A stretch of DNA of 55,946 nucleotides from a virus, in the IMG/VR virus record IMGVR_UViG_3300050504_000274; one strand, 5' to 3'. The position numbers and the translations under genes were made by a program. How positions within the stretch are numbered: the stretch's first letter is position 1; each line of letters opens with the position of its first letter. The notes beneath the pieces were generated by a model. It saw nothing but the letters and a program-made list of their open reading frames with translations. It ran no database searches and was not told the DNA's origin. Shown piece by piece: positions 6,408 through 39,950 of the stretch.

Positions 6408-6425
6408 CCAGAGGGGTAAGATACC

Positions 6426-6440
6426 CTGCCATCCTGGCAG
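6426..6440. promoter_or_regulatory. Palindromic operator-like site CTGCCATCCTGGCAG
   Basis: Perfect CTGCCA-N3-TGGCAG, 33 bp centre-to-centre from the first site. Confidence 0.5.
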
Positions 6441-14203: not shown

Positions 14204-14307
14204 CGCCTCACGAACCCCTTCCCGTCGCAGTGCTCGCACTTCTTCAGGTCGACCTTGCCCCGACCGCCGCACTTGGTGCAGCGCTCCGTCACCTGCCGGC
14301 GCCTCAC
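14200..14307 (-). CDS. 35-aa DnaJ-type zinc-finger microprotein (two CxxCxGxG motifs)
   Basis: My translation is VRRRQVTERCTKCGGRGKVDLKKCEHCDGKGFVRR. It has a GTGA overlap with the MazG-like stop and an ATGA overlap with the polymerase start. Confidence 0.55.
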   Translation of the reverse strand: MRRRQVTERCTKCGGRGKVDLKKCEHCDGKGFVRR

Positions 14308-18014: not shown

Positions 18015-18042
18015 AGTATATCGGAATCGGGACTGGAGTCAA
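18015..18042 (-). promoter_or_regulatory. Sigma70-like promoter TTGACT-N16-TATACT
   Basis: -35 at 18037-18042 and -10 at 18015-18020 (minus sense), in the 103-bp gap upstream of the gene at 17957. Confidence 0.55.
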
Positions 18043-18060
18043 GGAGTCTTTCCCGGATTC

Positions 18061-18372
18061 CTAGTACCTGCCGATGAACCTCGTGCCCGGCCCCTCCGGC
18101 GCGTCGACCTGGAGGAAGAGGTACCTGCCGTTCTGGCAGTCCCCTACGAACGCCAGCTCCTTGCCGTCCGGCTGATCCGGCAGAGCGTCGCCCTGGCTCA
18201 GCATGACGAAGGTCTCAGACTCCTGCGGCCGCGTGGGGTCGACCAGGGCCGACATGACGACCGTGTAGTCGTTCGGTCCGGCGCGCACCGAGAGCGGGCA
18301 CCAGCCGTCCGGCATCAGCATCGGCGTGACCGAGGACCAGCGCTGTAGGACATATTCTTGAACGCACCTCAT
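18061..18372 (-). CDS. Hypothetical protein (103 aa)
   Basis: MRCVQEYVLQRWSSVTPMLMPDGW... ATGA overlap with the SNF2 stop. This is the only non-biased part of track ORF 18061..19374. Confidence 0.7.
   Translation of the reverse strand: MRCVQEYVLQRWSSVTPMLMPDGWCPLSVRAGPNDYTVVMSALVDPTRPQESETFVMLSQGDALPDQPDGKELAFVGDCQNGRYLFLQVDAPEGPGTRFIGRY
18125..18139. promoter_or_regulatory. CTGCCGTTCTGGCAG palindrome inside the 3' end of a coding region, ~85 bp upstream of the 18.0-kb promoter
   Basis: Perfect CTGCC-N5-GGCAG, the same family as the sites at 6.4 kb and 34.8-35.2 kb. Confidence 0.35.
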
Positions 18373-20429: not shown

Positions 20430-20623
20430 TGCGGGACTCGCCCCCGCGGCCGCAGCTTTCGGATCCCCGCGGCGCGCAGGATCCTCGTCAGGGTCGTGAG
20501 GGACATCCGCCGCGGCAGCCCCTTCGGCGGGCTCTTCCGGATCTCCCGGAGCGTCTCGCCTGCCCTGTACCGCCTCGCGATGCTGCGCTCCTGGCGCAGC
20601 GTCGTCTCGATCATCGCCGTCAT
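20426..20623 (-). CDS. Small helix-turn-helix DNA-binding protein (65 aa)
   Basis: AGGAGG 6 nt upstream of ATG 20623. IARRYRAGETLREI...LTTLTRILRAAG resembles a resolvase/sigma-region-4-type HTH. Confidence 0.65.
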   Translation of the reverse strand: MTAMIETTLRQERSIARRYRAGETLREIRKSPPKGLPRRMSLTTLTRILRAAGIRKLRPRGRVPQ

Positions 20624-20649
20624 TCCTTGCCTCCTGGTGGTCGCCGAGA

Positions 20650-22602
20650 TCATCCCAGGCGCTCGAGGACCGTCTCGGCGAACGGCTCGAGTGCGTTGAA
20701 GAGCGCCACGAGGTCGAAGTCGTTCGTGCCGCCGGGGAAGACCACGATGGTCCGCCCGAGCGCCTCGGCGACCTTCTCGCCCCGCTCCTTCAGCCTGTCC
20801 TTCCGCTTGTGCGGGTCCAGCGCCCAGTAGGACTCCGCCATCATGTCGGTGGCCATCTCGGCCCCGACCTTGTTCATCAGGTCCGCCGCCATGACGACGG
20901 GCCGGTCCGCCCCCTTGAGCTGCACCACGCCGAGGTAGAGCGAGAGCCCCACCCGCGGGCGCCCCCGGCCGTCCTTCGGCCTCCGGTCCACGACGGGCGC
21001 CTCGACCGCGGGCGGCTCGGGGCTCGGCGCCGGGGCCGCAGGAGCGGGCGCCGGGGCCGCCGCCTTCGGGGCGGCCTTCGGAGCGGGCGGAGGGGCCGCC
21101 GGCGCTGGCGCCGGGGCCGCGGCGGGGGCCGAGACCTTGACGCCCGACTGCGCCCACTCCAGGGCCGCGCCCATCGCCGCCAGCGCCTCGGCCCTGTCCT
21201 CGCGGGCCACCGCGACCGCGCCCTCGTCGGTGATCTCGACGTGGTACGCCTCGCTGCTCGGGCGGCCGTCCTTCGCGGCCGTCTTGTCGCAGATCATGCA
21301 CGGGCGGCCCTCCTTGTTCATGCCGATGCCCTTGCACACCGGGCAGCTCGGCCGCGCCCACGGGGCGCCGCCGGTGACCGACGCCTGCGGCGCGGTCGGG
21401 CCGGAGTTGATCGCCGGGGCCGCCGGCTGCGGGGCGGCCGGGGCCGCCTGGGCCTTCGGCGCGGCCGGAGCCGGCGCCTGGGCCGCTGTCTGCGCGGCTC
21501 GCGCCGCCTTCTGCTTCTTCGCACGCTCGAAAAGGTCCACGTTGCCTCCTGTGTCTTTCTTGTCCTTCTTCCGCTTCGGCTCGAGCCCGAGGTTCGGGCG
21601 CTGACGCTCCGCGCGGTCCTTGGTCTGTCTCTCGATTCGCTTAGTATACCCCGCCACCGTCTCGCGGCGAGAACATATCCCCTGGAAAGGGCAGCCCCCG
21701 TACTGCGAGCACACGTCCGTCGTCTCGGGTCCCGGCGCGTCCTCCCACCGCTTGATCCCCCTGACGGCCAGCATGCCCCGCCCGACCTCCTGGAGGAACT
21801 CCCAGTGCTTGGACAATCTCTTCGACGAGACGAGCGCCGAGACTTTACGGACTCCCCTCGGGTCCCTGAACTTAGGGAACTGGTTGTGCCGCACGAAGAC
21901 TGGGCCGTCGTACCCGTCGAGGCGCGACGTCGCGGCCGCGTAGGTGAGGAGCTGCTGGTTGTGCCCCACGCAGTTGGGGCTCGTGCCGTCGCCCGGGGAG
22001 TAGGGCTCCTGGATCTGCTCGTACTGGTCGATCTCGTTCTGCGGCCCAGGCTGCTTGAGGTAGCGCACCGAGGACTCCCCGAAGGACTTGTGGTCGTGGA
22101 CCTCCGGGGCCGAGACGATGTACTTCGTCCCGTCGGGCTGGTGGACGACCGTCTCCGCCGGCCGGAACCAGTCCACGTAGCCGAGCAGCTCCACGCCGTC
22201 GACCAGCGGCAGGCGGACCTCGCGCTCGACCTGCACCTTCGGGTCGCGGGACAGGACCCCCTTCTCCACCGCGTCGGCGAGCAGGTCGCGGATGAGCTTC
22301 GCCTCGTTCGGCGTCACGCTGGCCGCCGCGCCGCGCTCCTCGACGGTCTCCCATCCGGAGGGGAAGGGGTCGACCGCCGCTCCGGCGGCCTGGCCCGCCA
22401 GGACCTCGGGCACCGGGGACGGCACGCGCCCCTGCGCGTCGGCCGCCTTCCAGCGCTCGATGCAGCCGTGCAGCACTGTGCCGAAGGTGAAGTAGCCGCG
22501 CTGCTCCTCGGGCAGCCGCGCGACGCGCTTGAGCCACCAGCGGCGCCTACACGCCGTGAAATCCTCGACCTGCGAGGCGGAGGTGACGAGCGGCTCGCTC
22601 AC
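20650..22602 (-). CDS. Cas4/RecB-like PD-(D/E)XK nuclease fused to Ala/Pro linkers, a zinc ribbon, an AT-hook and an unknown C-terminal domain (650 aa)
   Basis: GTG 22602 (GGAGGAGGA upstream, GTGA overlap). The N-terminus has FTACRRRWWLK...GTVLHGCIE...LLGYVDW...EVHDHK plus a C-terminal Cys cluster CSQYGGCPFQGIC. Then CPVCKGIGMNKEGRPCMICD, then KDGRGRPRV. Confidence 0.8.
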   Translation of the reverse strand: MSEPLVTSASQVEDFTACRRRWWLKRVARLPEEQRGYFTFGTVLHGCIERWKAADAQGRVPSPVPEVLAGQAAGAAVDPFPSGWETVEERGAAASVTPNEAKLIRDLLADAVEKGVLSRDPKVQVEREVRLPLVDGVELLGYVDWFRPAETVVHQPDGTKYIVSAPEVHDHKSFGESSVRYLKQPGPQNEIDQYEQIQEPYSPGDGTSPNCVGHNQQLLTYAAATSRLDGYDGPVFVRHNQFPKFRDPRGVRKVSALVSSKRLSKHWEFLQEVGRGMLAVRGIKRWEDAPGPETTDVCSQYGGCPFQGICSRRETVAGYTKRIERQTKDRAERQRPNLGLEPKRKKDKKDTGGNVDLFERAKKQKAARAAQTAAQAPAPAAPKAQAAPAAPQPAAPAINSGPTAPQASVTGGAPWARPSCPVCKGIGMNKEGRPCMICDKTAAKDGRPSSEAYHVEITDEGAVAVAREDRAEALAAMGAALEWAQSGVKVSAPAAAPAPAPAAPPPAPKAAPKAAAPAPAPAAPAPSPEPPAVEAPVVDRRPKDGRGRPRVGLSLYLGVVQLKGADRPVVMAADLMNKVGAEMATDMMAESYWALDPHKRKDRLKERGEKVAEALGRTIVVFPGGTNDFDLVALFNALEPFAETVLERLG

Positions 22603-25262
22603 CGGTCCTCCTCCCCGTTGCGCGAGATGATCTGCGTCGCCAGGGCCTCGCCGCCGGGCTGCGTGCGGAGGAGTCGCTCGATGCGCTCGCACGCCATGCC
22701 GTAGCGCAGGCCCTCCTCGAACACCACGGCCAGATTCACCTCGATCCAGCGGCCGCGCTCCTGGCCCTTCGGCCGGCGCTTCTGCGTCTCGCCGTCGTAC
22801 TCGTGCGCGGCGAACTGGCGCAGCACCGCAGCGCACTTGCTGAGGCTCACGCGCTCGGGGATCATGGACGTGGGCGAGCCGATGTAGTCGACCACGCCGG
22901 ACGCGGTGACCCAGACGTAGCCACCCTCGCAGTGCACGCCGCGCCGCTCGCCGGGCGACTCGACCATCCTCACGATCGCCTTCAGCACGGCCTGCGAGGC
23001 CTGCGTGCGCAGCCGCATCGAGCGCACCATGCTGGTGTGGACCTCGCCCTCGACTAGCAGGCGGTTCGTCCCGCGCCGACTCGGGGTGCGGTTCGCGTAG
23101 AGCCAGGCGACGTGGTTCGCGACCACGTACCTGCTCGGCTCGCGGCCGCCGACCCAGCCCGAGGTGTAGGCGTAGTTGCCGCGCGAGGTGAGCAGGTCGC
23201 GGGCGCGGTGGCCGACCTCGACCGAGAGCAGCCGCACCTCGATCGCGCGGACGTCCTCGTCGGTGAGGTCGCGGTGCCCGACGATCGAGCGCAGCATGTC
23301 GCGGTCGTTGCCGGTGAACAGGATCCGCGGGTAGACGCTCGCGTTGAACGGGTCGCGGTACATCGAGCGGATCGTGAGCCGGCCGCCAGAGACGAACGCG
23401 CGGAAGGCCTGGTCGATCGGGAGCGACTCGTCGGACTGGATCTGCGGCAGGCCCTCGTCGCAGTTGATGACCGGCGAGTGGAGGAGGCCCTCGTTGAACT
23501 TGCCGAGCGCGCGGCCGTCGTTCGACCGCTCGCCCTCGAAGCACTCGGCGAGACCCTGCGCCAGCATCCCCTTGCCGGCCCCGCTCGCGCCGTAGAGGTT
23601 GAGCGCGCAGATCGGCGCGGTGACGTCGAGCGCCCACGAGAGCCACTCGACGAGGAGGTCGGACTTCTCGCCGGCCATAGCCTCGAGCCACTCCTGCACC
23701 TGGGCGCTGTACTCGCCGCCCCTCCGCAGCCGCGGGTTCAGCCGGTGCACCGGCAGGTGCAGGACGCGCGCGCCCTGGTCGCCGTCGATGTACGCGAAGG
23801 AGTCGCGCGACGAGCAGGACACCGAGGAGATCGGGGTGGCGTGGTCGTTCAGGATCGACTGCGCGCTCCGCGGAACCCACGCCCTGCCGCGCAGCTCGGA
23901 GGTCTCGATCACGTCCTCCATGCCCAGCTCGCGGATCATCGGCACGAGCATGGAGTCGCCGCACGGCCGCACGTTGTACGTGGAGTCGGGGCGCATCACG
24001 TAGTGGTTCCGGCCGTCGCTCGCGACCATCCGCTGGCGCAGCCACTCCTCCGCGTCCGCCGGCGACTGCGGCACGGAGAGGGGCTGGTCCTTCCTCACGA
24101 TCGCCATGATCTCCTCGCGCACGCCCTTGGCCCGCTGGAGGCTGCGCTCGCGCTCCTCGTTCGCCGCCTGGATCTGGGCCTGCTCGCTCGCCCACATCCG
24201 GCACACGATGTCCCACGCCTTCGGGAGCCACTGGGTCTCGCGGGCGCCGGAGTCCTCGTCGGCCTGGAGCTGCTGGAGCGCCGGCACCAGCAGCGCGAAC
24301 ACGCCCTCTGGCGTCGCGCTCTCGATGCGCGCCGTCATGCCGACGACCTGGCCGACGAGCCGGGTCACGCCGTTGTTCCAGCCCCTCGATACGTCGACCT
24401 TCCCGTCCTCGAAGCACGCGGCGTAGGCCTCGCGGCCCTGGAGGTACTTCTGTGCCTCGCGCCCGAAGTCGGTCGGCACCTCGCGGCCGTTGCTCGACCG
24501 CCTGAGGACCAGCTCCCGGCACTCGTCCGGGTCCGGCATGTCGGCCCGGTACGGCACGACCTGGGCGAACTCGTCCTGAGCCGCGGCCGTCACCTGGATC
24601 GTCGAGGCGTCGAGCGCCGGGCCGCCGCCGAGGTACCTGAACATGGGGTCCGTCGAGAAGCTCGCGCCGGTGTCCGCGCGCGTCGCTCCGGGCAGGCGGA
24701 AGAGGCGCGTCCAGTCCTTGCACGCCGGGTCGAGCTGGACCCCCTGCGCGGCGAAGCGCGCCATCATCTCGGCGCACAGCGGCTCGGCCTCCAGGTGGCT
24801 CACAGGCGCCGCGAGCGCGTACACGAAGCGGCAGCCGTGCAGCGTGGTGTACCAGTAGGTCGGGGAAGGGAGGTCGGCCCCGGCGAGCACCTGCACGAAC
24901 TCGCCGAGGCCTTCCTCGGTCCAGACGGTCTTTGATCCGTCCGGATTCTTGGGTAGGTCGTAGTCGAAGAGCAGCACCGATACGTCGATCCGGCCGCCGA
25001 GCAGCGCCAGCTCCGCCGCGATCGGGGCGCGCTTGTTCGCGCGGGCGTAGCAGCGGTCTCCGTCCTCGTCGACCAGCGCGTACGAGACGACGTGGGCGTC
25101 CCGGTCCCACTCGCGCGACATCGCCTCCGACAGCGGGAGGTGCTCGTCGCACATCACGCGCGAGGCCCTGTTCTGGTCGGCCAGGTCCGCGAGCACGCCG
25201 GCGCCGGGGTGGCGCTCGCGGTCGAAGATCACTCCGACGATCGGATCCGGTGCAGGTTCCAT
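22599..25262 (-). CDS. Primase-polymerase (AEP-like) fused to an SF3 (D5/P4-type) helicase
   Basis: 887 aa. VLLFDYDLPK and TTLHGCRF are AEP-like motifs. Walker A YGASGAGKG. Walker B VINCDEG. Confidence 0.85.
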   Translation of the reverse strand: MEPAPDPIVGVIFDRERHPGAGVLADLADQNRASRVMCDEHLPLSEAMSREWDRDAHVVSYALVDEDGDRCYARANKRAPIAAELALLGGRIDVSVLLFDYDLPKNPDGSKTVWTEEGLGEFVQVLAGADLPSPTYWYTTLHGCRFVYALAAPVSHLEAEPLCAEMMARFAAQGVQLDPACKDWTRLFRLPGATRADTGASFSTDPMFRYLGGGPALDASTIQVTAAAQDEFAQVVPYRADMPDPDECRELVLRRSSNGREVPTDFGREAQKYLQGREAYAACFEDGKVDVSRGWNNGVTRLVGQVVGMTARIESATPEGVFALLVPALQQLQADEDSGARETQWLPKAWDIVCRMWASEQAQIQAANEERERSLQRAKGVREEIMAIVRKDQPLSVPQSPADAEEWLRQRMVASDGRNHYVMRPDSTYNVRPCGDSMLVPMIRELGMEDVIETSELRGRAWVPRSAQSILNDHATPISSVSCSSRDSFAYIDGDQGARVLHLPVHRLNPRLRRGGEYSAQVQEWLEAMAGEKSDLLVEWLSWALDVTAPICALNLYGASGAGKGMLAQGLAECFEGERSNDGRALGKFNEGLLHSPVINCDEGLPQIQSDESLPIDQAFRAFVSGGRLTIRSMYRDPFNASVYPRILFTGNDRDMLRSIVGHRDLTDEDVRAIEVRLLSVEVGHRARDLLTSRGNYAYTSGWVGGREPSRYVVANHVAWLYANRTPSRRGTNRLLVEGEVHTSMVRSMRLRTQASQAVLKAIVRMVESPGERRGVHCEGGYVWVTASGVVDYIGSPTSMIPERVSLSKCAAVLRQFAAHEYDGETQKRRPKGQERGRWIEVNLAVVFEEGLRYGMACERIERLLRTQPGGEALATQIISRNGEEDR

Positions 25263-25383: not shown

Positions 25384-25956
25384 TCAGAAGCCCTCGAGCC
25401 CGAGCTGGCTCGCGCGCTTCTTGAAGGCGAAGCGGGCGGTGCGAGGGTCGTGCGCCCAGACCTTCGCGATCGCGGGCGCGTCGAGGGCGACCCGGTGGTC
25501 GACCCAGCCCACGCCCTCCGGCAGGAGGTAGTGCGCCTCCAGGTGGAGCGCGCGGGTGTCGTAGACCTTCACGCGCGGCCAGATCCACGAGTCCTCCGGC
25601 GGGAGCCCGAGGTCCTCGCGCACCGCGGCCTGGATCCTCGCCTCCCAGGCCTCGTGCTCCGGAAGATCGATCTTGAACGGGCTCGGGAAGTCGCCGCAGT
25701 ACGCCTCGTGGGCGTCGTGCAGGAGCGCGCACTGCTGCACCACCAGCGGCTCGCCGGCCGCCTCGGCCAGCACCGAGACCAGCACCGAGTGCTCGGCCAC
25801 GGAGTAGAACTCGCGGACGTGCCCGAGGTAGCGGCAGATCATCGACAGCGCGTGCGTGACGTCCTCGCGCTCGAAGTTGCAGTGCGAGTCGAGCGAGAAG
25901 AACTTCCGGCCGCTGACCGTCGTGATGTAGCCGTGCTTCTTCGCGGGGTGCTCCAT
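25384..25956 (-). CDS. HD-domain phosphohydrolase (5'-deoxynucleotidase/dNTPase-like)
   Basis: SVAEHSVLV (His) and ALLHDAHEAYCGDFPSP (HD...D). Start set to ATG 25956 (MEHPAKK), which shares one base with the upstream stop. Confidence 0.8.
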   Translation of the reverse strand: MEHPAKKHGYITTVSGRKFFSLDSHCNFEREDVTHALSMICRYLGHVREFYSVAEHSVLVSVLAEAAGEPLVVQQCALLHDAHEAYCGDFPSPFKIDLPEHEAWEARIQAAVREDLGLPPEDSWIWPRVKVYDTRALHLEAHYLLPEGVGWVDHRVALDAPAIAKVWAHDPRTARFAFKKRASQLGLEGF

Positions 25957-26360
25957 CAGTCGTCCGATCCGCACGGCGTGGCGTCGTCGCGCACGTCGAA
26001 GTCGTCGGGCTGCTCGGCCTGGGGCGGCGGCATCAGGTCGCCGCGCATGGTGCTCAGGTACACGTGGTTGCCGGCCTCCGCCCGGACCGTGAGGCCGCCG
26101 AGCGAGCTGCGGACCTCGAGCCCCAGCGCCCCGTCCGCGCCGCGACCGATCCTCACGTGAATCTTGTGGGCGCGCAGATACTTGTCTTCGCCCAAGTCGA
26201 ACACCACGTCGGCGTTCTTGTGTATGTCGAACGAGGAGAGCGAGTCGTCCTCCTCGCTCCTCACGATCACGTCGATCGACTCCTCGGTCCTCGGCAATCT
26301 CCGCTCGCCCATCGCAGTCGCCCCCAGCCGCGCGTAGCGGCCCGTAGTCGTCAGGTCCAT
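25956..26360 (-). CDS. Hypothetical acidic protein (134 aa)
   Basis: MDLTTTGRYARLGATAMGERRLPRTEESIDVIVRSEEDD... ATGA overlap with the lipoprotein gene stop. Confidence 0.65.
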   Translation of the reverse strand: MDLTTTGRYARLGATAMGERRLPRTEESIDVIVRSEEDDSLSSFDIHKNADVVFDLGEDKYLRAHKIHVRIGRGADGALGLEVRSSLGGLTVRAEAGNHVYLSTMRGDLMPPPQAEQPDDFDVRDDATPCGSDD

Positions 26361-28239: not shown

Positions 28240-28343
28240 TAGAGGTCCTCCCCGTCCATCAGGATGATGATGAGGATGATGAGCCCGAAGAGCCCGACCC
28301 TGCGCCACACGCGCACGCCGGGAGGAGCGTCGAAGTCGTTCAC
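28239..28343 (-). CDS. 34-aa single-TM micropeptide
   Basis: My translation is VNDFDAPPGVRVWRRVGLFGLIILIIILMDGEDL. AGGAGA upstream, GTGA overlap with the UDG-like stop, TAGTG overlap with the next start. Confidence 0.45.
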   Translation of the reverse strand: MNDFDAPPGVRVWRRVGLFGLIILIIILMDGEDL

Positions 28344-28897
28344 TGCTTATCTCCTGTGGTGTGCGAGCCGCCGCCCGCCGGCATAGCGGGGCCGACCGTG
28401 ACCGGCCGGCTCTGCTGCGGCGGCTCCCACACGTCCGTCGCGAGCCGGTTGAAGAACCGGCGCGCTGCTCTCCTGTTGTTCTGGTCGTTCCACCAGCGGT
28501 TGCGGCCTGAGGGGTGCGGGCACACGTAGGCCCGCGTCCCCCTGCTCCGGGCCGAGGTCGCGCAGCCGTAGAACGCGCAGCGGAAGAACGGCGCCGAGCC
28601 GACCTCTCGGAAGGAGTCCGCGACCCTGCGCCCCAGCAGCACCACGTGCTCGTACCTGGCCCAGTCGTCGACCACCATCGTCGTCGCCGCGTCGCGGGCC
28701 GACACCGGCCCCCACCGCTCCTGCGGGTGCTCGAACAGGTTCGTCCGGTCGGCCAGTCGCAGGAACTCCTCGCGCGACCAGCCGGTGTACCCGAGCAGCC
28801 TGCGTCCCGCGTCGCAGTAGTCCGGGTGGAGCGGGAACCCGACGTTCGAGATCGTCGGCGCCTCGCCCACGAAGAGCACGCGGGCGCTCACCCGCAC
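28340..28897 (-). CDS. Uracil-DNA glycosylase superfamily protein (family 4/5-like)
   Basis: VLFVGEAP (motif A) and CPHPSGRN (motif B). The start is GTG at either 28897 or 28891. Confidence 0.8.
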   Translation of the reverse strand: MRVSARVLFVGEAPTISNVGFPLHPDYCDAGRRLLGYTGWSREEFLRLADRTNLFEHPQERWGPVSARDAATTMVVDDWARYEHVVLLGRRVADSFREVGSAPFFRCAFYGCATSARSRGTRAYVCPHPSGRNRWWNDQNNRRAARRFFNRLATDVWEPPQQSRPVTVGPAMPAGGGSHTTGDKQ

Positions 28898-29400: not shown

Positions 29401-29703
29401 CTAGTTCGAGGTCACCCTGTCGACGCAGGCGACCGTGCCGTCCGGCCTCACCCTGTAGACCAGCAGCCCGCCCCTAGGGGCTGCGGGTCGCGGCCGGAGG
29501 TACACCACCAGGGAGACGTTGCCGTCCCTGTCCGCGACGCGGACCACCCGGTCCGTAGGGAACGCCAGCGGCACCTCGGCCTCCGTGCGCGGCGGGCGCC
29601 CGAGCCCCCTCGGCCCGGCGCACCCCAGGCAGCACGCCGCGATCAGGGCCATCTCCAGGAACATTATCCCCACGTACACGCTCAGTCGCTTGCTGGTCGT
29701 CAC
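29401..29703 (-). CDS. Predicted lipoprotein (100 aa)
   Basis: VTTSKRLSVYVGIMFLEMALIAACCLGCAGP is a signal peptide plus the lipobox LGC. GTG start with GTGA overlap on the GGDEF gene stop. Confidence 0.7.
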   Translation of the reverse strand: MTTSKRLSVYVGIMFLEMALIAACCLGCAGPRGLGRPPRTEAEVPLAFPTDRVVRVADRDGNVSLVVYLRPRPAAPRGGLLVYRVRPDGTVACVDRVTSN

Positions 29704-30275
29704 AGGATCCTCCTCTGCGCTATCTCACGCAGGCGCAGCCACGCCGCCGAGAAGGTCGGCAGCGTCCTCGCCCGCTTCTCCTCCTTGTCCAGGTACATCG
29801 CCGCGTCCGCGGCCTCCACGTCCGCGCCGAGGCCGGCGCTCGCCGACACCCGGCCGTCGCGCGAGCGCCAGCGGCGCACCAGGTCGCGCACGCGGCGCGC
29901 CCCGGCCCGGCTGTCGATGCGCACGACGAACTCGTCCCCGCCCTCGCGGGCGAGCGTCACGTCCGAGCCCCGAGTCTGCTCGGAGAGGAAGTGCGCGAAC
30001 TCCCGCAGCACCTCGTCCCCGTAGGCGTGCCCGAGCGGGTGCGCGTCCTGCGCCGCCTTGAACCCGTCCAGGTCGACGAAGACGAACCAGCTCTGGCCGT
30101 CGCGCCGCGTCCGGCGGTCTAGTCCGCGCCGGTTGTAGAGTCCCGTGAGAGAGTCCACCTCCGCGTCCCGCGCCCGCGCCTCGGCCTCGCGCTCCAGGTC
30201 GGGGAGCCGCGCCAGCCGCTCGCGCAGCGTCGCGTACTTCGTCTCGGTCAGGTCGGACCAGGCGGGAGAGTCCAA
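29700..30275 (-). CDS. Stand-alone GGDEF-domain protein (putative diguanylate cyclase), 191 aa
   Basis: DSLTGLYNRRG, FVDLDGFK, GHAYGDEVLREFA, REGGDEFVV (checked against the DNA at 29921-29960) and SASAG...AADAAMYLDK. A ~40-aa coiled-coil N-terminus and no sensor domain. Confidence 0.9.
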   Translation of the reverse strand: MDSPAWSDLTETKYATLRERLARLPDLEREAEARARDAEVDSLTGLYNRRGLDRRTRRDGQSWFVFVDLDGFKAAQDAHPLGHAYGDEVLREFAHFLSEQTRGSDVTLAREGGDEFVVRIDSRAGARRVRDLVRRWRSRDGRVSASAGLGADVEAADAAMYLDKEEKRARTLPTFSAAWLRLREIAQRRIL

Positions 30276-33578: not shown

Positions 33579-34019
33579 CTACTTCGGCTCCTCCGGTCGT
33601 CCCGCTTGAGCCGCTCGGCGAGCCGCGCCGGCCTTCAGACAGTCCGCGTAGCTCGCTAGGTTCCCCCGCCCGACCCGGCGCGCCATCTCTCGAGCCGCGC
33701 TCGGGGGCGGCATGCGCTCCTCGCGCACCACCTCGCGGAGGTCCGCTACCAGGAGCCTCCGACCCCCGGCGTCCAGCGCGAGGAACTCCCTGCCGAACGC
33801 GGACCGGAGCGCGAGGAGGTCCAGCCGGTAGGCCTCCCCGTCCTTCATCGGCTCGGCCTCGTCGCGCGCGGGCGGAGACTTCCGGTCCGCGCAGTCCTCG
33901 GAGCAGTAGCACGCCACGAGATCGCGGCCGCGCAGTCCGCCGGGTGCGACGTCGTAGTACCCGTCCGCGTCGTCCTGGACGAACCTGCCGCACGTCGGAC
34001 ACTTGTCGGAGTGCTTCAT
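33579..34019 (-). CDS. Zinc-ribbon protein (146 aa)
   Basis: ATG 34019 with GGAAGGGAG upstream. MKHSDKCPTCGRF...ACYCSEDC. Confidence 0.7.
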   Translation of the reverse strand: MKHSDKCPTCGRFVQDDADGYYDVAPGGLRGRDLVACYCSEDCADRKSPPARDEAEPMKDGEAYRLDLLALRSAFGREFLALDAGGRRLLVADLREVVREERMPPPSAAREMARRVGRGNLASYADCLKAGAARRAAQAGRPEEPK

Positions 34020-34051
34020 GGTGGGTCGCTCCCTTCCGTGGTCAGCCGAGC

Positions 34052-34171
34052 CTAGCTCGGGACCACCTCCGCGAGCCTCAAGACCGCGAAGACCACCACC
34101 GCGACGATCGGCAGGGCGCCGAGGAGCTTCAGGCCGGCGGGGGTCACGTTGGCTTGGATCATGTGCTTCAT
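34052..34171 (-). CDS. 39-aa single-TM micropeptide, first ORF of the leftward early operon
   Basis: My translation is MKHMIQANVTPAGLKLLGALPIVAVVVFAVLRLAEVVPS. RBS AAGGAAGGAAG 9 nt upstream. About 45 nt downstream of the predicted early promoter. Confidence 0.5.
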   Translation of the reverse strand: MKHMIQANVTPAGLKLLGALPIVAVVVFAVLRLAEVVPS

Positions 34172-34223
34172 GGCTTCTGGCTTCCTTCCTTTGGTGTCTC
34201 GTGGCTTCCGACCACGGTAGCCG

Positions 34224-34252
34224 AGTATATCGGCCGACCGAACCTTTGTCCA
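34224..34252 (-). promoter_or_regulatory. Leftward early promoter TGGACA-N17-TATACT
   Basis: -35 at 34247-34252 and -10 at 34224-34229 (minus sense), at the left edge of the noncoding hub. Confidence 0.55.
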
Positions 34253-34342
34253 GCGGAAAAAGCCGGGAATCGCCTAATTGATCTCCTAGCAATAGGTTAG
34301 AGTCTCGGAATCGGGACGTTGTTACCGATAGTCGGACTGCCC

Positions 34343-34408
34343 GGCCCGAGGTGCGGGCGCACCTAAGTAGAGCTAGGACAGGAGCTTGCGCCGGTAGGCC
34401 CGAGGTGC
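34343..34408. repeat. 12-bp exact direct repeat ggcccgaggtgc (34343-34354, 34397-34408) overlapping a 7+2+7 palindrome aggtgcgggcgcacct (34349-34364)
   Basis: Read directly in the noncoding hub. Confidence 0.8.
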
Positions 34409-34447
34409 CCAGCCTTTCCTATGTCCCGCTATACACGTACCCTTATA

Positions 34448-34614
34448 CTACTTTCGGGATATCTCGAAAACAGTATAAGGGGTCGCGCACACGTTAGAGG
34501 GGGACCGTTTTGCAGGAGTCTCGATCCTAGGCCTCCGACTACTATCCGTTGTGGTCCTACTTTCGGGACCTCCGAGCCTAATGTTACGCATAGCGCAGAA
34601 TTCGGATATCTCGA
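34448..34614. repeat. Dispersed direct repeats in the noncoding hub
   Basis: ctactttcggga occurs at 34448 and 34557. ggatatctcga occurs at 34457 and 34604, inside an imperfect palindrome around GATATC. Both are exact matches read by eye. Further partial matches: aggggtc, gggac(c)(g)ttttgca. Confidence 0.75.
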
Positions 34615-34804
34615 TCTACGTACAGGGGTCCGTTCTACGGGACTTTTGCACCGTTCTTACCTAATTGGTCGTCCTAAGTCCATGCAGGAGGCCTACTTAG
34701 GCGTGTGTTGCATTAGTGGAATAATGTAAGTTTTCAGTCAAAACCCACCTAAATCGAATTGATTCTAGATCAAACCCCTAGATCGAGGGCTTGTCGCACC
34801 CTAA

Positions 34805-34842
34805 ATGCCATTATGGCAGGGCCTCGGCTGCCATAATGGCAG
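34805..34842. promoter_or_regulatory. Pair of operator-like palindromes ATGCCATTATGGCAG and CTGCCATAATGGCAG; together they form a 13-bp perfect inverted repeat
   Basis: gccattatggcag (34807-34819) and ctgccataatggc (28-40) are reverse complements separated by 8 nt. Each half is itself a CTGCC-N5-GGCAG-type palindrome. Centres are 23 bp apart. Confidence 0.55.
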
Positions 34843-34990
34843 GCCATTTGTTACGATGTCGTAACACATTGATGTGAGATCAATTCGAAGGCGAGGCCTC
34901 GGGCAGGCTCCTGGGAAATTGATCGCGCGCCAAACCCCTCCACGTGCGCGATTCCGGGCAGGGAGACTGCCCCTCCTCGCGTCGCGGGAC

Positions 34991-35078
34991 CCAGAATTTC
35001 GGGCTGGGAAATTCGGCCGGGAAAAATCTGGGCAGAAAATCCGGGCCTAGGAATTCGGCCGGAGGAATTCAGGCTAGG
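34991..35078. repeat. Six tandem degenerate ~14-bp units (GRAAWWTYC-GGSC), iteron/phased A-tract-like
   Basis: GAAWT cores start at 34994, 35008, 35021, 35035, 35051 and 35065, giving spacings of 14, 13, 14, 16 and 14. Confidence 0.7.
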
Positions 35079-35139
35079 AGAGCGGCGGCCGCACGCTCCG
35101 GCACACGTGCACGTTCCCGCACGGAATCCCGGAATCCGC

Positions 35140-35168
35140 TTGACCCTGCCGTTTTGGCAGCGTACGCT
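35140..35168 (+). promoter_or_regulatory. Rightward promoter TTGACC-N17-TACGCT with CTGCCGTTTTGGCAG filling the spacer
   Basis: -35 at 35140-35145, palindrome at 35146-35160, -10 at 35163-35168. The first possible start codon (TTG 35174) is 6 nt after the -10. Confidence 0.5.
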
Positions 35169-35173
35169 GGGGG

Positions 35174-36259
35174 TTGCGGCGCGCCCGAGCGCAGCACCCA
35201 ACGCGAGCACCCCCGGCCGTGGCCCAGAGGCACCAGGTAGACGTCGCGACCCCGGCGCTGGACCGCTTCCTGTCCGAGCCCGCGGCCCGCCAGCTCCTCG
35301 GCGACGAGCTGGGCCGGGTGCTGTCCGAGGCGTTCCTGCCGCCCGGCTACGAGGCCCAGTACCCGCGCCAGGAGGACCTCCGCTGGCGCGTCCTGGTCTG
35401 CTGGCGCCTCGCTCGCGGGATCGCGCTGGTGCTCGGCCTGTGCGCCGAGGACGAGCCGCTCGAGCGCGCCGCGGACGCCGAGGACTACGCCGAGAGCCCG
35501 TGGACCTTCCCGACCGCGCCGCGGCTCTCCCCGAGCCAGCAGCAGCTCGTCCGGCTCGGCGAGGCGACCGACATGCACCGGCTCGCCGCCGGGGGCGTGA
35601 CGCTGCTGCCGCCGGCCGACCCGGCCCTCGCCCGGGCCTGGTGCCCGGTCGCCGCGGTGCTCGCCGAGGAGCTGGGCGTCGCCGCCTCGGAGGGCGGGGC
35701 GGCCGGGCTGCGCGGCCTGCTCGACCCGAGGACCTGCGGCCACGCGGGCGTGACCCCGAAGATGGTGGTGGGCCTGGAGGAGCTGCTCGTCGACGAGGCG
35801 GCCCGGGCGATCCTGGAGTGCGGCGAGCGCGCGACGGTGGAGCACCTGCGCGGCCGCTACGGCCTGGCCCGCCGGGAGGCCGCGGCGCTGGTGCGCCTGG
35901 CGCGCGCCGACGCGATGCGCGGGGGCTCCTCCTCGGTTGAGGAGGACCGCGCCCTGATGGTGCTGATGCTGAAGGACCTCGCGGCCCGCACCAAGGAGGA
36001 GATGAACACCGACAAGGAGCTGCGCGTGCTGAAGGAGCTGGCCCGCGTGCAGGGCCTCACGCGCTCGGAGCCCGAGGACCTGGGGCGGCTCTTCGCCGGC
36101 GTGATCGCGGGGGTGGCCGAGCGGCAGGACCGCCGGCTGCTAGAGAGCCAGAGGAGGATCGTCGACGCGGACGCGGTGGACGTGACCCCCGAGCCCGCGG
36201 TAGACTCGGGGGACGAGGACCCGGCGGCCCTCGCGGAGTTCGACAGGGAGGAGACGTGA
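35174..36259 (+). CDS. Hypothetical protein, possible small terminase subunit (361 aa; start uncertain)
   Basis: First gene of the rightward block. The C-terminal KELRVLKELARVQGLTRSEPEDL resembles the ...ALELLGKHLGLF tail of some TerS families. The TTG start would be leaderless; GTG 35219 is an alternative. Confidence 0.6.
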   Translation: MRRARAQHPTRAPPAVAQRHQVDVATPALDRFLSEPAARQLLGDELGRVLSEAFLPPGYEAQYPRQEDLRWRVLVCWRLARGIALVLGLCAEDEPLERAADAEDYAESPWTFPTAPRLSPSQQQLVRLGEATDMHRLAAGGVTLLPPADPALARAWCPVAAVLAEELGVAASEGGAAGLRGLLDPRTCGHAGVTPKMVVGLEELLVDEAARAILECGERATVEHLRGRYGLARREAAALVRLARADAMRGGSSSVEEDRALMVLMLKDLAARTKEEMNTDKELRVLKELARVQGLTRSEPEDLGRLFAGVIAGVAERQDRRLLESQRRIVDADAVDVTPEPAVDSGDEDPAALAEFDREET

Positions 36260-36798
36260 TGCTGCGATGGGCGAGATCAGGCGGAAGACGTGAGAGCGCT
36301 GCGACCCGGAGGCGGCCCGTGAGGCGCGCCGCGCTGAGCGCGATCGGCTTCGCGCTCGACAGAGCGCTATGCGCGCTGCTCTTCTGGGGCGTCGTCCTGG
36401 CGAACCTGGAGGGCTGCGCGGCGGTGGGCCGCGGCCTGAAGTTCGTCGGTGAGAGGCTCATCCAGATCGGGGGAGGCGCCGTCGTCGGCTTCCTCGCCTG
36501 GGTCCTCTACCCGGTCGGCTGGGCCGGCGTCGCGCTCGCGACGTTCGTGGCGAGCGTGTTCTCCGCGCTCGCCGCCCCGCCGACCGTCGTGGACAAGAAC
36601 GGCCACGGAGGCCCAGACCGCCTGACGTGGGTGCTCGTCGGCGCGGGCGGCGCGCTGCTGCTCCGCGCGTGGGCGCACTACCCGGAGGTGTTCCGGCGCG
36701 CGTGGGCGCTCGTCCGCGGCGGCGCGAGGGCGTTCCTCGGCGGGGTCGAGCGGAGGCTGCCAGAGCTGCCGCCGGAGTCCAAGGAGGTCGGCAGGTGA
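36256..36798 (+). CDS. Multi-pass membrane protein (180 aa)
   Basis: At least four hydrophobic stretches (ALCALLFWGVVLANL, GGAVVGFLAWVLYPVGWAGVALATFVASVFSALA, LTWVLVGAGGALLL). The start overlaps the upstream stop. Confidence 0.7.
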   Translation: MMLRWARSGGRRESAATRRRPVRRAALSAIGFALDRALCALLFWGVVLANLEGCAAVGRGLKFVGERLIQIGGGAVVGFLAWVLYPVGWAGVALATFVASVFSALAAPPTVVDKNGHGGPDRLTWVLVGAGGALLLRAWAHYPEVFRRAWALVRGGARAFLGGVERRLPELPPESKEVGR

Positions 36799-36926
36799 GG
36801 CCCGACCAGCGAGGCTACTACGCGGCCGACGAGGACCCGCTCGACGAGCCCGAGGACCAGTCGGACGAGATGGACGACCCCCTGAGCTTCGTCTTCCCCG
36901 AGGACGAGCACGCGAACTACCAGTAG
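36795..36926 (+). CDS. 43-aa highly acidic peptide
   Basis: GTGA overlap. VRPDQRGYYAADEDPLDEPEDQSDEMDDPLSFVFPEDEHANYQ has 16 Asp/Glu in 43 aa. Confidence 0.5.
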   Translation: MRPDQRGYYAADEDPLDEPEDQSDEMDDPLSFVFPEDEHANYQ

Positions 36927-36960
36927 TCCCCCTTTTCGGCGGCTCCGCCGCCTCACCTCC

Positions 36961-37254
36961 ATGATCTCCTTCGACGACCTGACCGACCTCCCGCCCTGGG
37001 TCAAGACCGGCGCGACCCTCCTGCTCGGCGCAGGGGCCTCGAAGGTCCTCGCCGTGTGGCTCGAGAGCCGCCGGCTCGCGAAGAGGGAGTACCGCGACAC
37101 GCTGCTCCAGCGGATCCGCGAGCTGGAGACCAAGATCGACCGCATGTACCACGAGCTGGGGCAGCGCGACGTGCTGATCGAGCAGCTCAGGAACGACCTG
37201 GAGCAGTACAAGGAGCCCCGTGCTCAGTCTCGCCGCCCTCCGAGGAAGGCTTGA
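36961..37254 (+). CDS. N-terminal TM plus coiled-coil protein (97 aa)
   Basis: TGATLLLGAGASKVLAVWL, followed by the heptad-like REYRDTLLQRIRELETKIDRMYHELGQRDVLIEQLRNDLEQ. Confidence 0.7.
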   Translation: MISFDDLTDLPPWVKTGATLLLGAGASKVLAVWLESRRLAKREYRDTLLQRIRELETKIDRMYHELGQRDVLIEQLRNDLEQYKEPRAQSRRPPRKA

Positions 37255-37762
37255 GGTCTTGCGGGACCCCCTGAGCCTCTGCGACTCGCTCGAGCTGAGG
37301 CCCACGCCCCGGCAGCGCGAGGTCCTCGGGGTCCTCGCCACCAACCCGAGCTTCTACCAGGTCGTCGGGGACGCCCGGAACGAGATGTCCAGGGCCGCCG
37401 CGATGTACGCGCTGTGGCGCGTCCTCGCGAACCAGTCGTCCAGCGGGCTCGTCCTGGCCTCGACGCAGGACGAGGGGGCCAAGATCATGGCCTTCCTACA
37501 GCAGGTGACGACCAAGATCAACCCGCAGCTCGCCTCCGTGACCGGGTTCCCCTACTGGAACGTGCTCCGGGTCGGCGGGCAGCGCTCCTGGGAGATCCAC
37601 CTGCTCGAGAATCGCGCCCCGATCGTCGCCCAGAGGGCGCCGGGAGCGCTCCTGAGCGTCGTCGTGGGCGACAGGAGCAGCGATCCGGCGTTCCGGGAGG
37701 CCGTGACGGCCCTCGAGCAGCACTCGACGCACCCCAAGCACACCAGGATCGTCGTCTGGTGA
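37220..37762 (+). CDS. Hypothetical protein immediately upstream of terL; possibly a degenerate terminase-ATPase-like fold (start uncertain, alternative TTG 37259)
   Basis: LELRPTPRQREVLGVL...GDARNEMSRAAAMYALWRVL...LLSVVVGDRSSD loosely mirrors the TerL N-terminal layout but lacks a GK[ST] Walker A. Confidence 0.6.
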   Translation: MLSLAALRGRLEVLRDPLSLCDSLELRPTPRQREVLGVLATNPSFYQVVGDARNEMSRAAAMYALWRVLANQSSSGLVLASTQDEGAKIMAFLQQVTTKINPQLASVTGFPYWNVLRVGGQRSWEIHLLENRAPIVAQRAPGALLSVVVGDRSSDPAFREAVTALEQHSTHPKHTRIVVW

Positions 37763-37777
37763 CGATTTTCGGCTGAA

Positions 37778-39256
37778 ATGTCCACGTTCGCGAGGAAATT
37801 CACGCCCCTGTACGAGCGCTGGCGCTCCAGCATCCACGACTTCTTCGACACGGGCCTCAACTTCGGCAAGGAGGCGCCCGGGAGCGGCCCGACGTGGCAG
37901 CAGAGGCAGCTCCTAGACGTGATCCAGCTCGAGAGCGAGCTTCCGGTCGAGAAGAGGCTCAAGCGGGTGGCCGTCCGGAGCGGCCAGGGGCCGGGGAAGA
38001 CGTCCATGAGCGGCGGAGTCGCCCTCTGGCGCTGCCTCCGCTACCCGGACGCCCTCTGCGTGGTCACCGCGCCGAACATGCGGCAGTGCAAGCAGTTCAT
38101 CGACGAGATCGACCGCATCCTGAAGGGCGCGCACCCCTTCCTGCGCGGGTTCGTCGAGTGCTACGGCACGAAGGTCGTCGTCAACGGCTCGCGGACGTGG
38201 CAGATCCGCTCCGCGACGGCCTCGCGGCCGCAGAACCTCCAGGGGATCCACGAGAAGCGCCTGACGTTCATCGCCGACGAGGCCTCTGGCGTGGCCCGGT
38301 CGATCATGGAGACGATCCAGGGCACGCTGTCGAACCCGGACGCGCTCTTCCTGGCGATCGGGAACCCCAACACGACCGACTGCAAGTTCCACGAGTGCTT
38401 CACCACGCAGGCCGACCTGTGGCACCGGCTCGCGTGGAACGCCGAGGACACGGCGCGCGACTACCCGCACATCGTCTCGCCGAGCCGCAACCGCGCGCTC
38501 GAGCTGGAGTACGGCCGCGACAGCGACGTGTACCGCGTACGGGTCCTCGGGGAGTTCCCGCGCAGCGACCCGAACTCGATCATGGCGCTCGAGGACCTGA
38601 TCGCCTGTACCAAGACGACCATGTACGGGTGCGCGACGATCACGGACATCCTCCCGGTGAACAAGGCCATCGGCATCGACTACGCGCGCTACGGCGGCGA
38701 CGAGTCGGTCGTGGTCCGGCGCAGCGGGCTGGCCGTCGTGGACTTCAAGGTCTTCGTGAAGCGCGACCCGCGCGAGGTCACCGACTACGCCTTCCGCCAG
38801 CAGTACGACGCCGGCTGGAAGAACGACGACTGCTGGTACGTCCCCGACGCGGGCGGCATGGGCCAGGGCATCGTGCACTCGTTCTGGGAGGGCGGCAAGC
38901 AGGTGCACGAGTTCCACACGCAGGCCGTCGCGAGCGACAGCTCGATGTTCGCCGACGCCTACAGCGAGGCCTGGTGGAACCTGCGCAACCTCGTGCAGGA
39001 GCGCATCGTCCACCTCCCTAACGACCCGCGCCTGCTGAAGCAGCTCTCGACGCGGCAATACTACACCGACCGCAAGGGGCGCCTGAAGGTGGAGTCGAAG
39101 GACGAGTGGCGCGAGCGCACCGAGATCGACGAGTCGCCCGACCGCGCCGACGCGGTGGTGATGGCTTTCTATAGCCGGATGGGCCGCGACGGTAAGGTCG
39201 TCCAGATGCAGCAGAAGGCGTACAAGCTCGGGTCCCGGGCGAGGAGGAGCCGGTGA
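37778..39256 (+). CDS. terL: Terminase large subunit
   Basis: Walker A SGQGPGKTS, Walker B LTFIADEASG, and nuclease-domain acidic motifs IGIDYARYGGDES and SPDRADAVVMAF. Confidence 0.9.
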   Translation: MSTFARKFTPLYERWRSSIHDFFDTGLNFGKEAPGSGPTWQQRQLLDVIQLESELPVEKRLKRVAVRSGQGPGKTSMSGGVALWRCLRYPDALCVVTAPNMRQCKQFIDEIDRILKGAHPFLRGFVECYGTKVVVNGSRTWQIRSATASRPQNLQGIHEKRLTFIADEASGVARSIMETIQGTLSNPDALFLAIGNPNTTDCKFHECFTTQADLWHRLAWNAEDTARDYPHIVSPSRNRALELEYGRDSDVYRVRVLGEFPRSDPNSIMALEDLIACTKTTMYGCATITDILPVNKAIGIDYARYGGDESVVVRRSGLAVVDFKVFVKRDPREVTDYAFRQQYDAGWKNDDCWYVPDAGGMGQGIVHSFWEGGKQVHEFHTQAVASDSSMFADAYSEAWWNLRNLVQERIVHLPNDPRLLKQLSTRQYYTDRKGRLKVESKDEWRERTEIDESPDRADAVVMAFYSRMGRDGKVVQMQQKAYKLGSRARRSR

Positions 39257-39444
39257 AGTGCCCGTGCGGAGGGACGATCGGCGTGACGCACACGTACGCC
39301 GTCGACACGAAGAAGTTCCAGCGAGCCTACTGCCTGAAGTGCAAGCTCGTCTACTGTCTCGAGACCCTCATGCACCAGGTCGGTGCGCGGGGCTCGGGCG
39401 CGAAGGCCCGCGCGCAGCGGGCCGAGAAGGAGAAGGTCAGATGA
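39253..39444 (+). CDS. Zinc-ribbon protein (63 aa)
   Basis: GTGA overlap with the terL stop. KCPCGG...CLKCK, then a basic tail. Confidence 0.65.
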   Translation: MKCPCGGTIGVTHTYAVDTKKFQRAYCLKCKLVYCLETLMHQVGARGSGAKARAQRAEKEKVR

Positions 39445-39950
39445 AGAAGCTGATGATGTCCCTGGCGGCGCTGGCGCTGGTCGCGGCGGGCTGCCACACG
39501 ATGGACCGCTACCGCCCGACGCCCAGGCCCACCCCGGCCGAGAAGGCTATCGACCCGCGTCCGGACCTGCCCGGCAGGCCGGTCGAGGTGGGGAGCCCGC
39601 TGTTCGAGCTGGAGCGCGCCCTGCGCGCTCACTTCCCCACCGCTCACCCCTGGGTCCTCCGCTCGAGCCCGCTGAAGGACCCGTACCTCGGGCTGACGCA
39701 CCCGGACCCGAAGGCCGCGGCCGCCGGCGAGGACCCCTGGTCGCCGACGTCCTCGATCCTCACCGAGGTCCGCGACGACGTGGACCCCTGGATCCAGCGC
39801 GACATCCTGATCCACGAGTACGCGCACGTGCTAGCGTGGGACGCGCAGGAGAGCCCGCACGGCCCGGTCTGGGCCAGCCAGTTCGGCATCCTGTACAAGT
39901 ACACCAGGGGGGAGCCGATGATCCGGCTCTTCTTCCGCGGGGGACCGTGA
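39441..39950 (+). CDS. Lipoprotein with a SprT-like HExxH zinc-metallopeptidase motif (169 aa)
   Basis: MKKLMMSLAALALVAAGC (lipobox). ILIHEYAHVLAWDAQESPHGPVWASQFG fits the HExxH...HGxxW SprT-like pattern. ATGA overlap with the upstream stop. Confidence 0.75.
   Translation: MKKLMMSLAALALVAAGCHTMDRYRPTPRPTPAEKAIDPRPDLPGRPVEVGSPLFELERALRAHFPTAHPWVLRSSPLKDPYLGLTHPDPKAAAAGEDPWSPTSSILTEVRDDVDPWIQRDILIHEYAHVLAWDAQESPHGPVWASQFGILYKYTRGEPMIRLFFRGGP

Follow-up and report, generated by a model that had tools for sequence, protein, structure and literature searches.

What is the role of a kilobase of gene-free DNA of low G+C content, set between two divergent gene blocks of a G+C-rich phage genome? The question is raised by the IMG/VR virus record IMGVR_UViG_3300050504_000274, one complete phage contig of 55,946 nucleotides (hereafter the window), with a G+C content of 69.5% and a circular assembly corresponding to a genome of about 55.8 kb. 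Genes are leftward from about 8.8 kb to position 34171 and rightward from 35219 to 39950. This flip of gene directions places the gene-free region, which we refer to as the hub, exactly at the point of divergence. An earlier interpretation of the letters of this DNA (the sequence-only reading) had left open whether it is a replication origin, a packaging site, a regulatory centre or a locus of small RNAs. The regulatory centre is well supported: both outward promoters and the dyads associated with them are conserved, and the same dyad is found on late promoters. The hub is thus probably the central transcription-control region of the phage. The region and its most A/T-rich part are located as follows:

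34172-35218, no strand: whole gene-free, low-G+C hub (1047 bp), between a gene for a 39-amino-acid (aa) membrane protein (34052-34171, minus strand) and a gene for a 346-aa protein (35219-36259, plus strand)
34590-34890, no strand: G+C trough, with 41-52% G+C per 100 nt, the least conserved part of the hub

The left border is that given by the sequence-only reading. The right border, previously set at 35173, had to be moved, as the downstream gene starts at the GTG at 35219 and not at the TTG at 35174, according to the alignment with its homologue in the related locus L001 and to the 346-aa database protein P0001. The G+C content is 56.0% over 34172-35173 and 57.0% over 34172-35218, compared with 69.8% in the rest of the genome. 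The lowest 1,000-bp window genome-wide starts at 34144 (55.3%; mean 69.5%, standard deviation 2.7) and the lowest 300-bp window at 34590 (46.3%; standard deviation 4.0), both more than five standard deviations below the mean; a former hand count of 26 G+C out of 60 for 34681-34740 was reproduced. The genome had been described as almost gap-free apart from this region. Other gaps do exist, but the hub is by far the largest and has the lowest G+C content. It contains no conserved open reading frame (ORF), in line with the earlier claim: none of its 25 open frames has a tblastn match with an E value below 0.01 in relatives, and contigs of this phage and of related ones, when annotated independently, have no gene in the gap, with the sole exception of a 30-aa call in L021.

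We found no DNA match to the hub or to the 7.8 kb downstream among INPHARED phages (50,697 phage records), and the capsid and terminase proteins show about 33% identity or less to any of these records. By these comparisons, the phage is without a cultured relative at the DNA level. Used as a query, the 346-aa protein retrieved 26 database proteins, including its own entry, and the loci of relatives, all metagenome-derived, were taken from IMG/VR, JGI, ENA, and Logan. Wherever the contig extends far enough for the layout to be judged (L001, L004, L013-L016, and L021), we observed the same arrangement: a gene for a 39- to 41-aa membrane protein on the minus strand, a gap of 0.9-1.5 kb, and a gene for a 340- to 360-aa protein on the plus strand. 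The gap, its low G+C content, and its richness in repeats are kept across relatives whose neighboring protein is 37-79% identical. In every locus examined, the G+C content of the hub is below that of its flanks by 3-17 points (53-63% vs. 63-72%). The hub is identical in two contigs of this phage that come from other samples. The conservation of such a long gap amid tightly packed genomes argues for a function. Alignment to relatives, which had been proposed as a check, separated conserved elements, namely the promoters, the dyads, and a module upstream of the rightward promoter, from a poorly conserved middle.

The divergent promoters that the sequence-only reading had placed here, an early one directed to the left and a packaging one directed to the right, were both found by sequence and are conserved in relatives:

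34224-34252, minus strand: P_L, TGGACA-17-TATACT, found by promoter scan and followed by the ribosome-binding site GGAAGGAAG and the ATG at 34171
35140-35168, plus strand: P_R, TTGACC-17-TACGCT, an exact match to TTGACY-N17-TACGST
35122-35137, plus strand: CGGAATCC CGGAATCC, adjoining the −35 hexamer of P_R; relatives have the palindromic GAAATCCGGGATTCC

The scan of L001 identified TTGCCA-17-TATACT as the equivalent of P_L, and the P_L block CCGAGTATATCGG is conserved in L013. The extended −10 of P_L, CCGATATACT, recurs only once genome-wide, in another strong leftward promoter at 18016-18043 (minus strand, TTGACT-16-TATACT), which also shares the 13-mer TCGGAATCGGGAC with the hub. At the position of P_R, a TTGAC-like −35 and a TANNNT −10 are present in all 13 relatives. 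P_R would drive the operon 35219-39950, which includes the gene for the large terminase (TerL; 37778-39256). The motif CGGAATC occurs four times genome-wide, each time in a promoter region. Matches to sigma-54 promoters in the window are not above chance (9 vs. 12.9 expected).

The second line of evidence is a dyad of the form CTGCC-N5-GGCAG. Its core TGCC-N5-GGCA occurs seven times in the window versus 1.1 expected, and TGCCATWATGGCA with at most three mismatches also seven times versus 2.0 expected, a count reached in none of 100 shuffles. Six dyads have full or near-full arms. Five of these are noncoding, three in the hub and two in the gap between the prohead protease and portal genes:

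34805-34819, no strand: operator O1, aTGCCATTATGGCAG, found by dyad search
34828-34842, no strand: operator O2, CTGCCATAATGGCAG, found by dyad search, 23 bp from O1
35146-35160, no strand: operator O3, CTGCCGTTTTGGCAG, filling the 17-nt spacer of P_R
6393-6407 and 6426-6440, no strand: two dyads outside the hub, in the 120 bp that separate the divergent genes for the protease and the portal

The operator pair of the sequence-only reading, with dyads TGCCATTATGGCA at 34806 and TGCCATAATGGCA at 34829, is present and corresponds to O1 and O2. Throughout the closer clade (eight members: the window, L001, L009, L010, L013, L014, L015, and L016), a dyad occupies the O3 position, with fixed arms and a variable 5-nt center, as expected of a dyad site recognized by a protein. 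The O1/O2 pair is located about 320 bp upstream of P_R, and L001, L009, L010, and L013 have a similar pair that precedes their rightward promoter by 250-340 bp. The distances from O1/O2 to O3 across relatives (248-341 bp) reveal no common helical phase. In the protease-portal gap, the two dyads overlap promoters with the −10-like hexamers TAAGAT (plus strand) and TATCTT (minus strand) at 6417-6423, covering their −35 or spacer, and L017 and L018 have a dyad pair in the same gap. The occurrence of one dyad on the promoters of the hub, of the protease, and of the portal genes, both here and in relatives, marks a regulon. Conserved arms, overlap with promoters, and recurrence at promoters are together the pattern of operators of a dimeric regulator. 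The sequences themselves, where they lie relative to the hexamers, how far they exceed chance, and how well they are conserved are all seen directly; from these features, we infer that one dimeric DNA-binding protein binds the dyads and co-regulates the packaging and head operons.

The following scheme, in which the transcription starts, the protein binding, and the direction of regulation are predictions, would account for this organization. A host sigma-70-type RNA polymerase would start early at P_L (34252-34224) and transcribe leftward the genes for the 39-aa membrane protein and a 147-aa zinc-ribbon protein (33579-34020), and then the replication genes. The transcript from P_R would extend from the 346-aa orphan protein gene through that of the large terminase. 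P_R has near-consensus hexamers and would be gated by a protein bound to O3 in its spacer, O1 and O2 serving as auxiliary sites. The same protein, on the protease and portal promoters, would couple the packaging operon to the head genes. It most likely acts as a repressor, which would delay the packaging and head operons; we favor this direction because the hexamers of P_R are good and the dyad occupies the spacer. The middle of the hub, 34400-34890, would be a fast-evolving, repeat-rich, low-G+C spacer with lineage-specific palindromes.

Several observations weigh against this interpretation of the hub. The promoter scan gave one match versus 0.6 expected in shuffles, so that the case for the promoters is mainly their conservation. 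The roughly 900 bp between the two promoters exceed what transcription control alone needs. The sixth dyad, at 18125, lies inside a probable 86-aa gene (18064-18321, minus strand) that is absent from the composition-based gene call and is followed, just downstream, by the leftward promoter at 18016-18043. The −35 hexamers of the late promoters are poor, so that the dyad-binding protein could be an activator instead of a repressor. The conserved module upstream of P_R stands at a variable distance from it (70 to 181 nt from the first A-run down to the first base of the −10 hexamer), which is a poor fit to an activator of fixed geometry or to an UP element. Finally, family scans identified no repressor and no helix-turn-helix family in the flanking genes. 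Farther away, the small ORF 20426-20650 (minus strand) has a helix-turn-helix-like end, RSIARRYRAGETLREI...LTTLTRILRAAGI; its only family match is weak (HTH_33, E value 0.009) and below the curated cut-off. Its product is one candidate for the regulator that binds the dyads.

The module itself is the most deeply conserved part of the hub. Over about 160 bp, it combines the boxes CCTCCACG, CTGCCCC, and AACGCGCGGG with A-tract units that come after them at a spacing of about 14 nt:

34937-34988, plus strand: boxes CCTCCACG (34937-34944), ACTGCCCCTCC (34966-34976), and CGCGTCGCGGG (34978-34988), delimited by alignment of 12 relatives
34990-35079, plus strand: array of about six 14-nt A-tract units of the GAAAAATCCGGGCC type, found by direct repeat search

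The 14-bp periodic array noted previously is present at about 34990-35079 and corresponds to these units. The third box, CGCGTCGCGGG, reads AACGCGCGGG in relatives, with CGCG(C/T)CGCGGG as the general form. The module was aligned in all 12 relatives with invariant columns, including those whose neighboring protein is only 37-40% identical. The A-tract array is present in 13 of 13 relatives directly after the CGCGCGG box, with a spacing of 13-17 nt or twice that, and both the boxes and the A-tract units can also be recognized in contigs L020, L022-L024, and L026-L028. Within the 56-kb genome, units with at least four A residues are confined to this array, and all have the plus orientation. The alignment of the 12 relatives contains no consensus RNA base pair. 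The module would be a separate, family-wide protein-binding element upstream of P_R. Roughly apportioned, the largest single share of our expectation, itself a minority one, goes to an architectural or activator site for P_R, a smaller one to a packaging site (pac), a smaller one again to origin iterons, and a slight remainder to something else.

By contrast with the module, the middle of the hub, at about 34400-34890, is poorly conserved even in the closest relatives, and its set of repeats and palindromes differs in each lineage. In the window, it carries a 42-bp palindrome and TTGAT-N5-ATCAA sites:

34343-34408, no strand: 12-bp direct repeat GGCCCGAGGTGC (34343 and 34397) and 16-bp palindrome AGGTGCGGGCGCACCT (34349-34364), left of the middle for the most part, found by repeat search
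34440-34481, no strand: 42-bp imperfect palindrome centered on GATATC, with one copy each of CTACTTTCGGGA and GGATATCTCGA
34759-34773, no strand: palindrome F1, TTGATTCTAGATCAA, an inverted repeat
34869-34883, no strand: palindrome F2, TTGATGTGAGATCAA, found as inverted repeats

The direct repeat and the 16-bp palindrome are present as the sequence-only reading described them, and the second copy of GGCCCGAGGTGC opens a 26-nt block conserved in L013. The exact repeats of 11-12 bp were recovered as well, CTACTTTCGGGA at 34448 and 34557 and GGATATCTCGA at 34457 and 34604, the second copy of each lying outside the 42-bp palindrome, the sequence of which is not conserved in relatives. Exact direct 11-mer pairs number 6 versus 0.22 expected and 10-mer pairs 11 versus 0.83 expected, counts that none of 300 first-order Markov shuffles reach, and inverted 9- and 10-mers are likewise in excess over shuffles. 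F1 and F2 flank the O1/O2 pair almost symmetrically. F1 is specific to the lineage of the window: the L001 hub is devoid of any GATC and has TTACAATG-type palindromes instead, together with a 16-bp tandem repeat in its middle. GATC, the Dam site, is not enriched in the window hub (6.7 per kb vs. 8.1 per kb elsewhere). In L015, L020, and L022, A/T-rich DNA is surrounded by GGCCCACG-type repeats of either orientation, L004 has a 26-bp unit in about ten copies, and L008 an 18-bp unit in 28 copies.

These repeats are the ground for the proposal that the hub holds a replication origin, which we consider unlikely. In such an origin, either the A-tract units or the short repeats of each lineage would be iterons, recognized by a phage initiator (for example, the 887-aa primase-helicase), and the trough of 41-52% G+C would be the unwinding element; transcription from the promoters might activate or prime it, as at the primary origin of T7, where promoter-driven transcription activates or primes replication. 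The hub is indeed the lowest-G+C stretch of the genome and gathers several families of direct and inverted repeats, and each relative has its own set at the same place (the GGCCCACG type, the 18-bp unit in 28 copies, the 26-bp unit in about ten), which is what the co-evolution of iterons and initiator produces. SPP1 origins have the same make-up, direct repeats and an A/T-rich unwinding element (PMC6316719). Yet about six A-tract units and the trough are the candidates in the window, its other short repeats reaching only two or three copies per family; the hub contains no DnaA boxes; and the replication genes are 9-25 kb away with no adjacent initiator, neither the primase-helicase (22599-25262) nor the PolA gene (11975-14272) being beside it. 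The cumulative GC skew, proposed as a check, at first sight favors an origin, with its minimum at 35633 (35.6 kb), close to the hub, and its maximum at 6224 (6.2 kb). However, codons ending in C are favored in the late structural genes of both strands (position-3 skew of the coding strand between −0.1 and −0.27 in most, and near zero in two), and those for TerL and the portal, on the plus strand, also have a negative coding-strand position-3 skew, whereas most early genes near the hub have a G-rich coding strand. This codon bias by gene class, contrary to a leading/lagging-strand pattern, generates a replication-like curve without replication. The minimum thus marks the change of gene class and is silent on an origin, and we rejected GC skew as origin evidence after this codon-position analysis. 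Still less probable, indeed very improbable, is that the hub encodes one or more small noncoding RNAs with a regulatory or anti-defence role. The long gene-free stretch between strong promoters and two strongly folding spots would suit such a locus, as would the O2 dyad followed by GCCATTTGTT, which was flagged as terminator-like, as was its counterpart in L001. The small-RNA cluster envisaged by the sequence-only reading finds no support, however. The covariance-model search gave nothing at the Rfam gathering score in the whole window, and the best relaxed matches in the hub are chance-level (E value above 2), to eukaryotic miRNA models on the 42-bp palindrome; a scan of the window for tRNA and tmRNA genes found none. 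In a sliding window, folding is significant only at 34400-34524 and 34750-34924, at the palindromes, equally on both strands (z-score of −3.5 to −5.4 on both strands for the 42-bp palindrome), and elsewhere the z-score is about zero. Such strand symmetry is the signature of DNA inverted repeats. Moreover, the central part is unconserved even in the closest relatives, the sole deeply conserved module lacks any consensus base pair, and the dyads have conserved arms with variable centers. A 14-bp hairpin between O1 and O2 was rejected as an RNA terminator, as each dyad is individually symmetric and the L001 counterpart would not pair across the two sites.

The packaging site is a somewhat stronger contender than the origin, although a doubtful one. 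According to this proposal, the module at 34937-35079, possibly through P_R, is pac, and a DNA-recognition subunit of the terminase would wrap the phased A-tract and G+C repeats. At SPP1, the pac site overlaps the promoters of the terminase operon and carries direct repeats in intrinsically bent DNA, and binding of gp1 there both starts packaging and represses the operon (PMC6316719; PMC4737164). Sequences apt to wrap around the small terminase have been likened to nucleosome-positioning ones, with runs of 5-7 A/T bp separated by G/C pairs (PMC6316719; PMC4737164). The module resembles SPP1 pac in its direct repeats within A-tract-rich, presumably bent DNA at the promoter of the terminase operon. 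Its strong A-tract units are unique in the genome, of fixed orientation, and upstream of the TerL operon; it is found in every relative alongside a highly conserved TerL (70-92% identity at the eight loci with a substantial match); and the variable spacing between it and P_R is compatible with a cis site that is independent of the promoter. The genome has no recognizable canonical small terminase, and the model of the 346-aa protein has weak BFVD matches (E value 0.06-2), some to proteins named small terminase or DNA-binding. This AlphaFold model is all-helical, with a pLDDT of 80. Against this, the 346-aa protein has no significant small-terminase match by sequence or fold: searches of Pfam, PHROGs, PDB sequences, and Foldseek versus PDB gave no match. 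Scans with the family of this protein, for prophages in genome contigs (two scans) and in metagenome contigs, likewise returned nothing. The module also differs from the pacL-pacC-pacR arrangement of SPP1 in several ways: the first downstream gene encodes the 346-aa orphan and not a recognizable small terminase, TerL is 2.6 kb farther on, and the repeats have a period of about 14 nt, which is out of helical phase. The contig is circularly assembled, and the ends of the relatives' contigs give no consistent terminus. Contigs L003, L006, L009, L010, L020, and L022-L029, from independent samples, do break within the hub, which is an assembly break point. The breaks examined (L020, L022, and L026-L028) fall in short tandem repeats, for example ATATACATAAT and GGCCCACG arrays, which break k-mer assemblies, and we rejected them as physical genome ends. 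As possible as pac itself, and no less tentative, is that the module is the recognition site of an unrecognized DNA-handling system, likeliest for initiation of packaging (or replication) by the 346-aa protein. If true, this protein would represent a DNA-recognition subunit of a type new among terminases and would be coupled to a dyad switch shared with the head genes.

Seen as a transcription-control region, the hub has counterparts among well-known systems. In temperate phages, regulation of the lambda OR/OL type comprises divergent early control, dyad operators overlapping promoters, and auxiliary operators at a distance. Likewise, the hub has two outward sigma-70-type promoters, dyads placed on core promoter elements, and extra copies a few hundred base pairs away and at other promoters. 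It differs in that we found no flanking cI/Cro-like repressor gene, no integrase, and no prophage relatives, in the distance of about 900 bp between promoters that are not back to back, and in the location of the operators on the late and packaging promoters and not on the early one. Conserved inverted repeats of the Streptomyces phage phiC31 and the stoperators of mycobacteriophage L5 are repressor sites of actinophages. As in these high-G+C phages, one short motif at several intergenic, promoter-proximal places marks the regulon of a single regulator; here, however, there are only six copies, their sequence is another one (CTGCC-N5-GGCAG), and no signs of lysogeny were seen. Origins combining iterons with an unwinding element are those of lambda (ori), SPP1 (oriL/oriR), and P4 (ori). 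The hub shares with them short repeats beside the most A/T-rich DNA of the genome and lineage-specific repeat sets, but it is neither in nor next to an initiator gene, is devoid of DnaA boxes, has few copies per family, and has a confounded skew. As the proteins that define these families were not found, the likenesses are analogies of function and do not amount to membership. What is new is the motifs and the lineage, whereas the kind of element is already known. Because its class is familiar, the value of the hub is descriptive and not conceptual: it provides a first wiring map of this phage lineage, with the early and the late/packaging promoters named, defines a putative six-site dyad regulon joining the packaging operon to the head genes, and contains one deeply conserved cis module, in which pac or ori should obviously be sought first.

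Gene assignments elsewhere in the window are based on protein family scans:

3041-4105, minus strand: major capsid protein
4957-6369, minus strand: prohead protease
6490-8115, plus strand: portal
9214-10497, minus strand: exonuclease
11975-14272, minus strand: PolA-type polymerase
18369-20429, minus strand: helicase
22599-25262, minus strand: DUF5906 primase-helicase of 887 aa
37778-39256, plus strand: large terminase (TerL)
40027 to the contig end, minus strand: tail genes
11376-11939, 25384-25974, 11975-14272 (PolA), and 28340-28897, minus strand: nucleotide-metabolism gene set

The circular assembly is indicated by the first 127 bases (1-127), which recur at the contig end (55820-55946). 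This overlap is located within a 132-bp tandem repeat (2.5 copies, 92% matches; 55622-55946) of a tail gene, so the copy number of the repeat and the exact genome length are uncertain. Just upstream of TerL, a conserved 180-aa protein (37220-37762, plus strand) was considered as a small terminase but has no family match; by eye, it has the look of a degenerate P-loop/terminase N-terminal domain (PTPRQREVL..., with VGDxRNE at the Walker A position).

Two relatives harbor tandem arrays of a different kind. In the hub of L004 (IMGVR_UViG_3300017971_000058), about ten tandem copies of CTGGCACGGCCCTTGCTA, 26-27 bp apart, are found at 3471-3761, all directed toward the 353-aa gene. The unit would match the sigma-54 −24/−12 consensus, TGGCACG-N4-TTGCW, and a similar TGGCACG-N4-GTGCTA is present within the rightward promoter of L005 and L008. 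The array could represent tandem sigma-54 promoters, a sigma-54 decoy, or a palindromic TGGCA-type operator; it would also argue against an actinobacterial host for L004. To the left of the hub of L008 (1620-2125), 28 tandem copies of the 18-bp unit GATGCTCGCGTGGGATCC may be coding, for a repetitive peptide, or form an iteron-like array.

Among the genes for nucleotide metabolism, one encoding a dATP/dGTP diphosphohydrolase-like protein (PF18909, E value 4e-19) is directly downstream of the PolA gene, and the window also encodes an HD-domain dNMP/dNTP hydrolase-like protein and a protein of the UDG superfamily. Such a combination is reminiscent of phages with altered nucleotide pools or bases; the window proteins scanned included no PurZ-like one. 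Finally, the early gene 29700-30275 (minus strand) encodes a GGDEF diguanylate-cyclase domain (PF00990, E value 4e-17), which suggests that the phage manipulates c-di-GMP signaling of its host.

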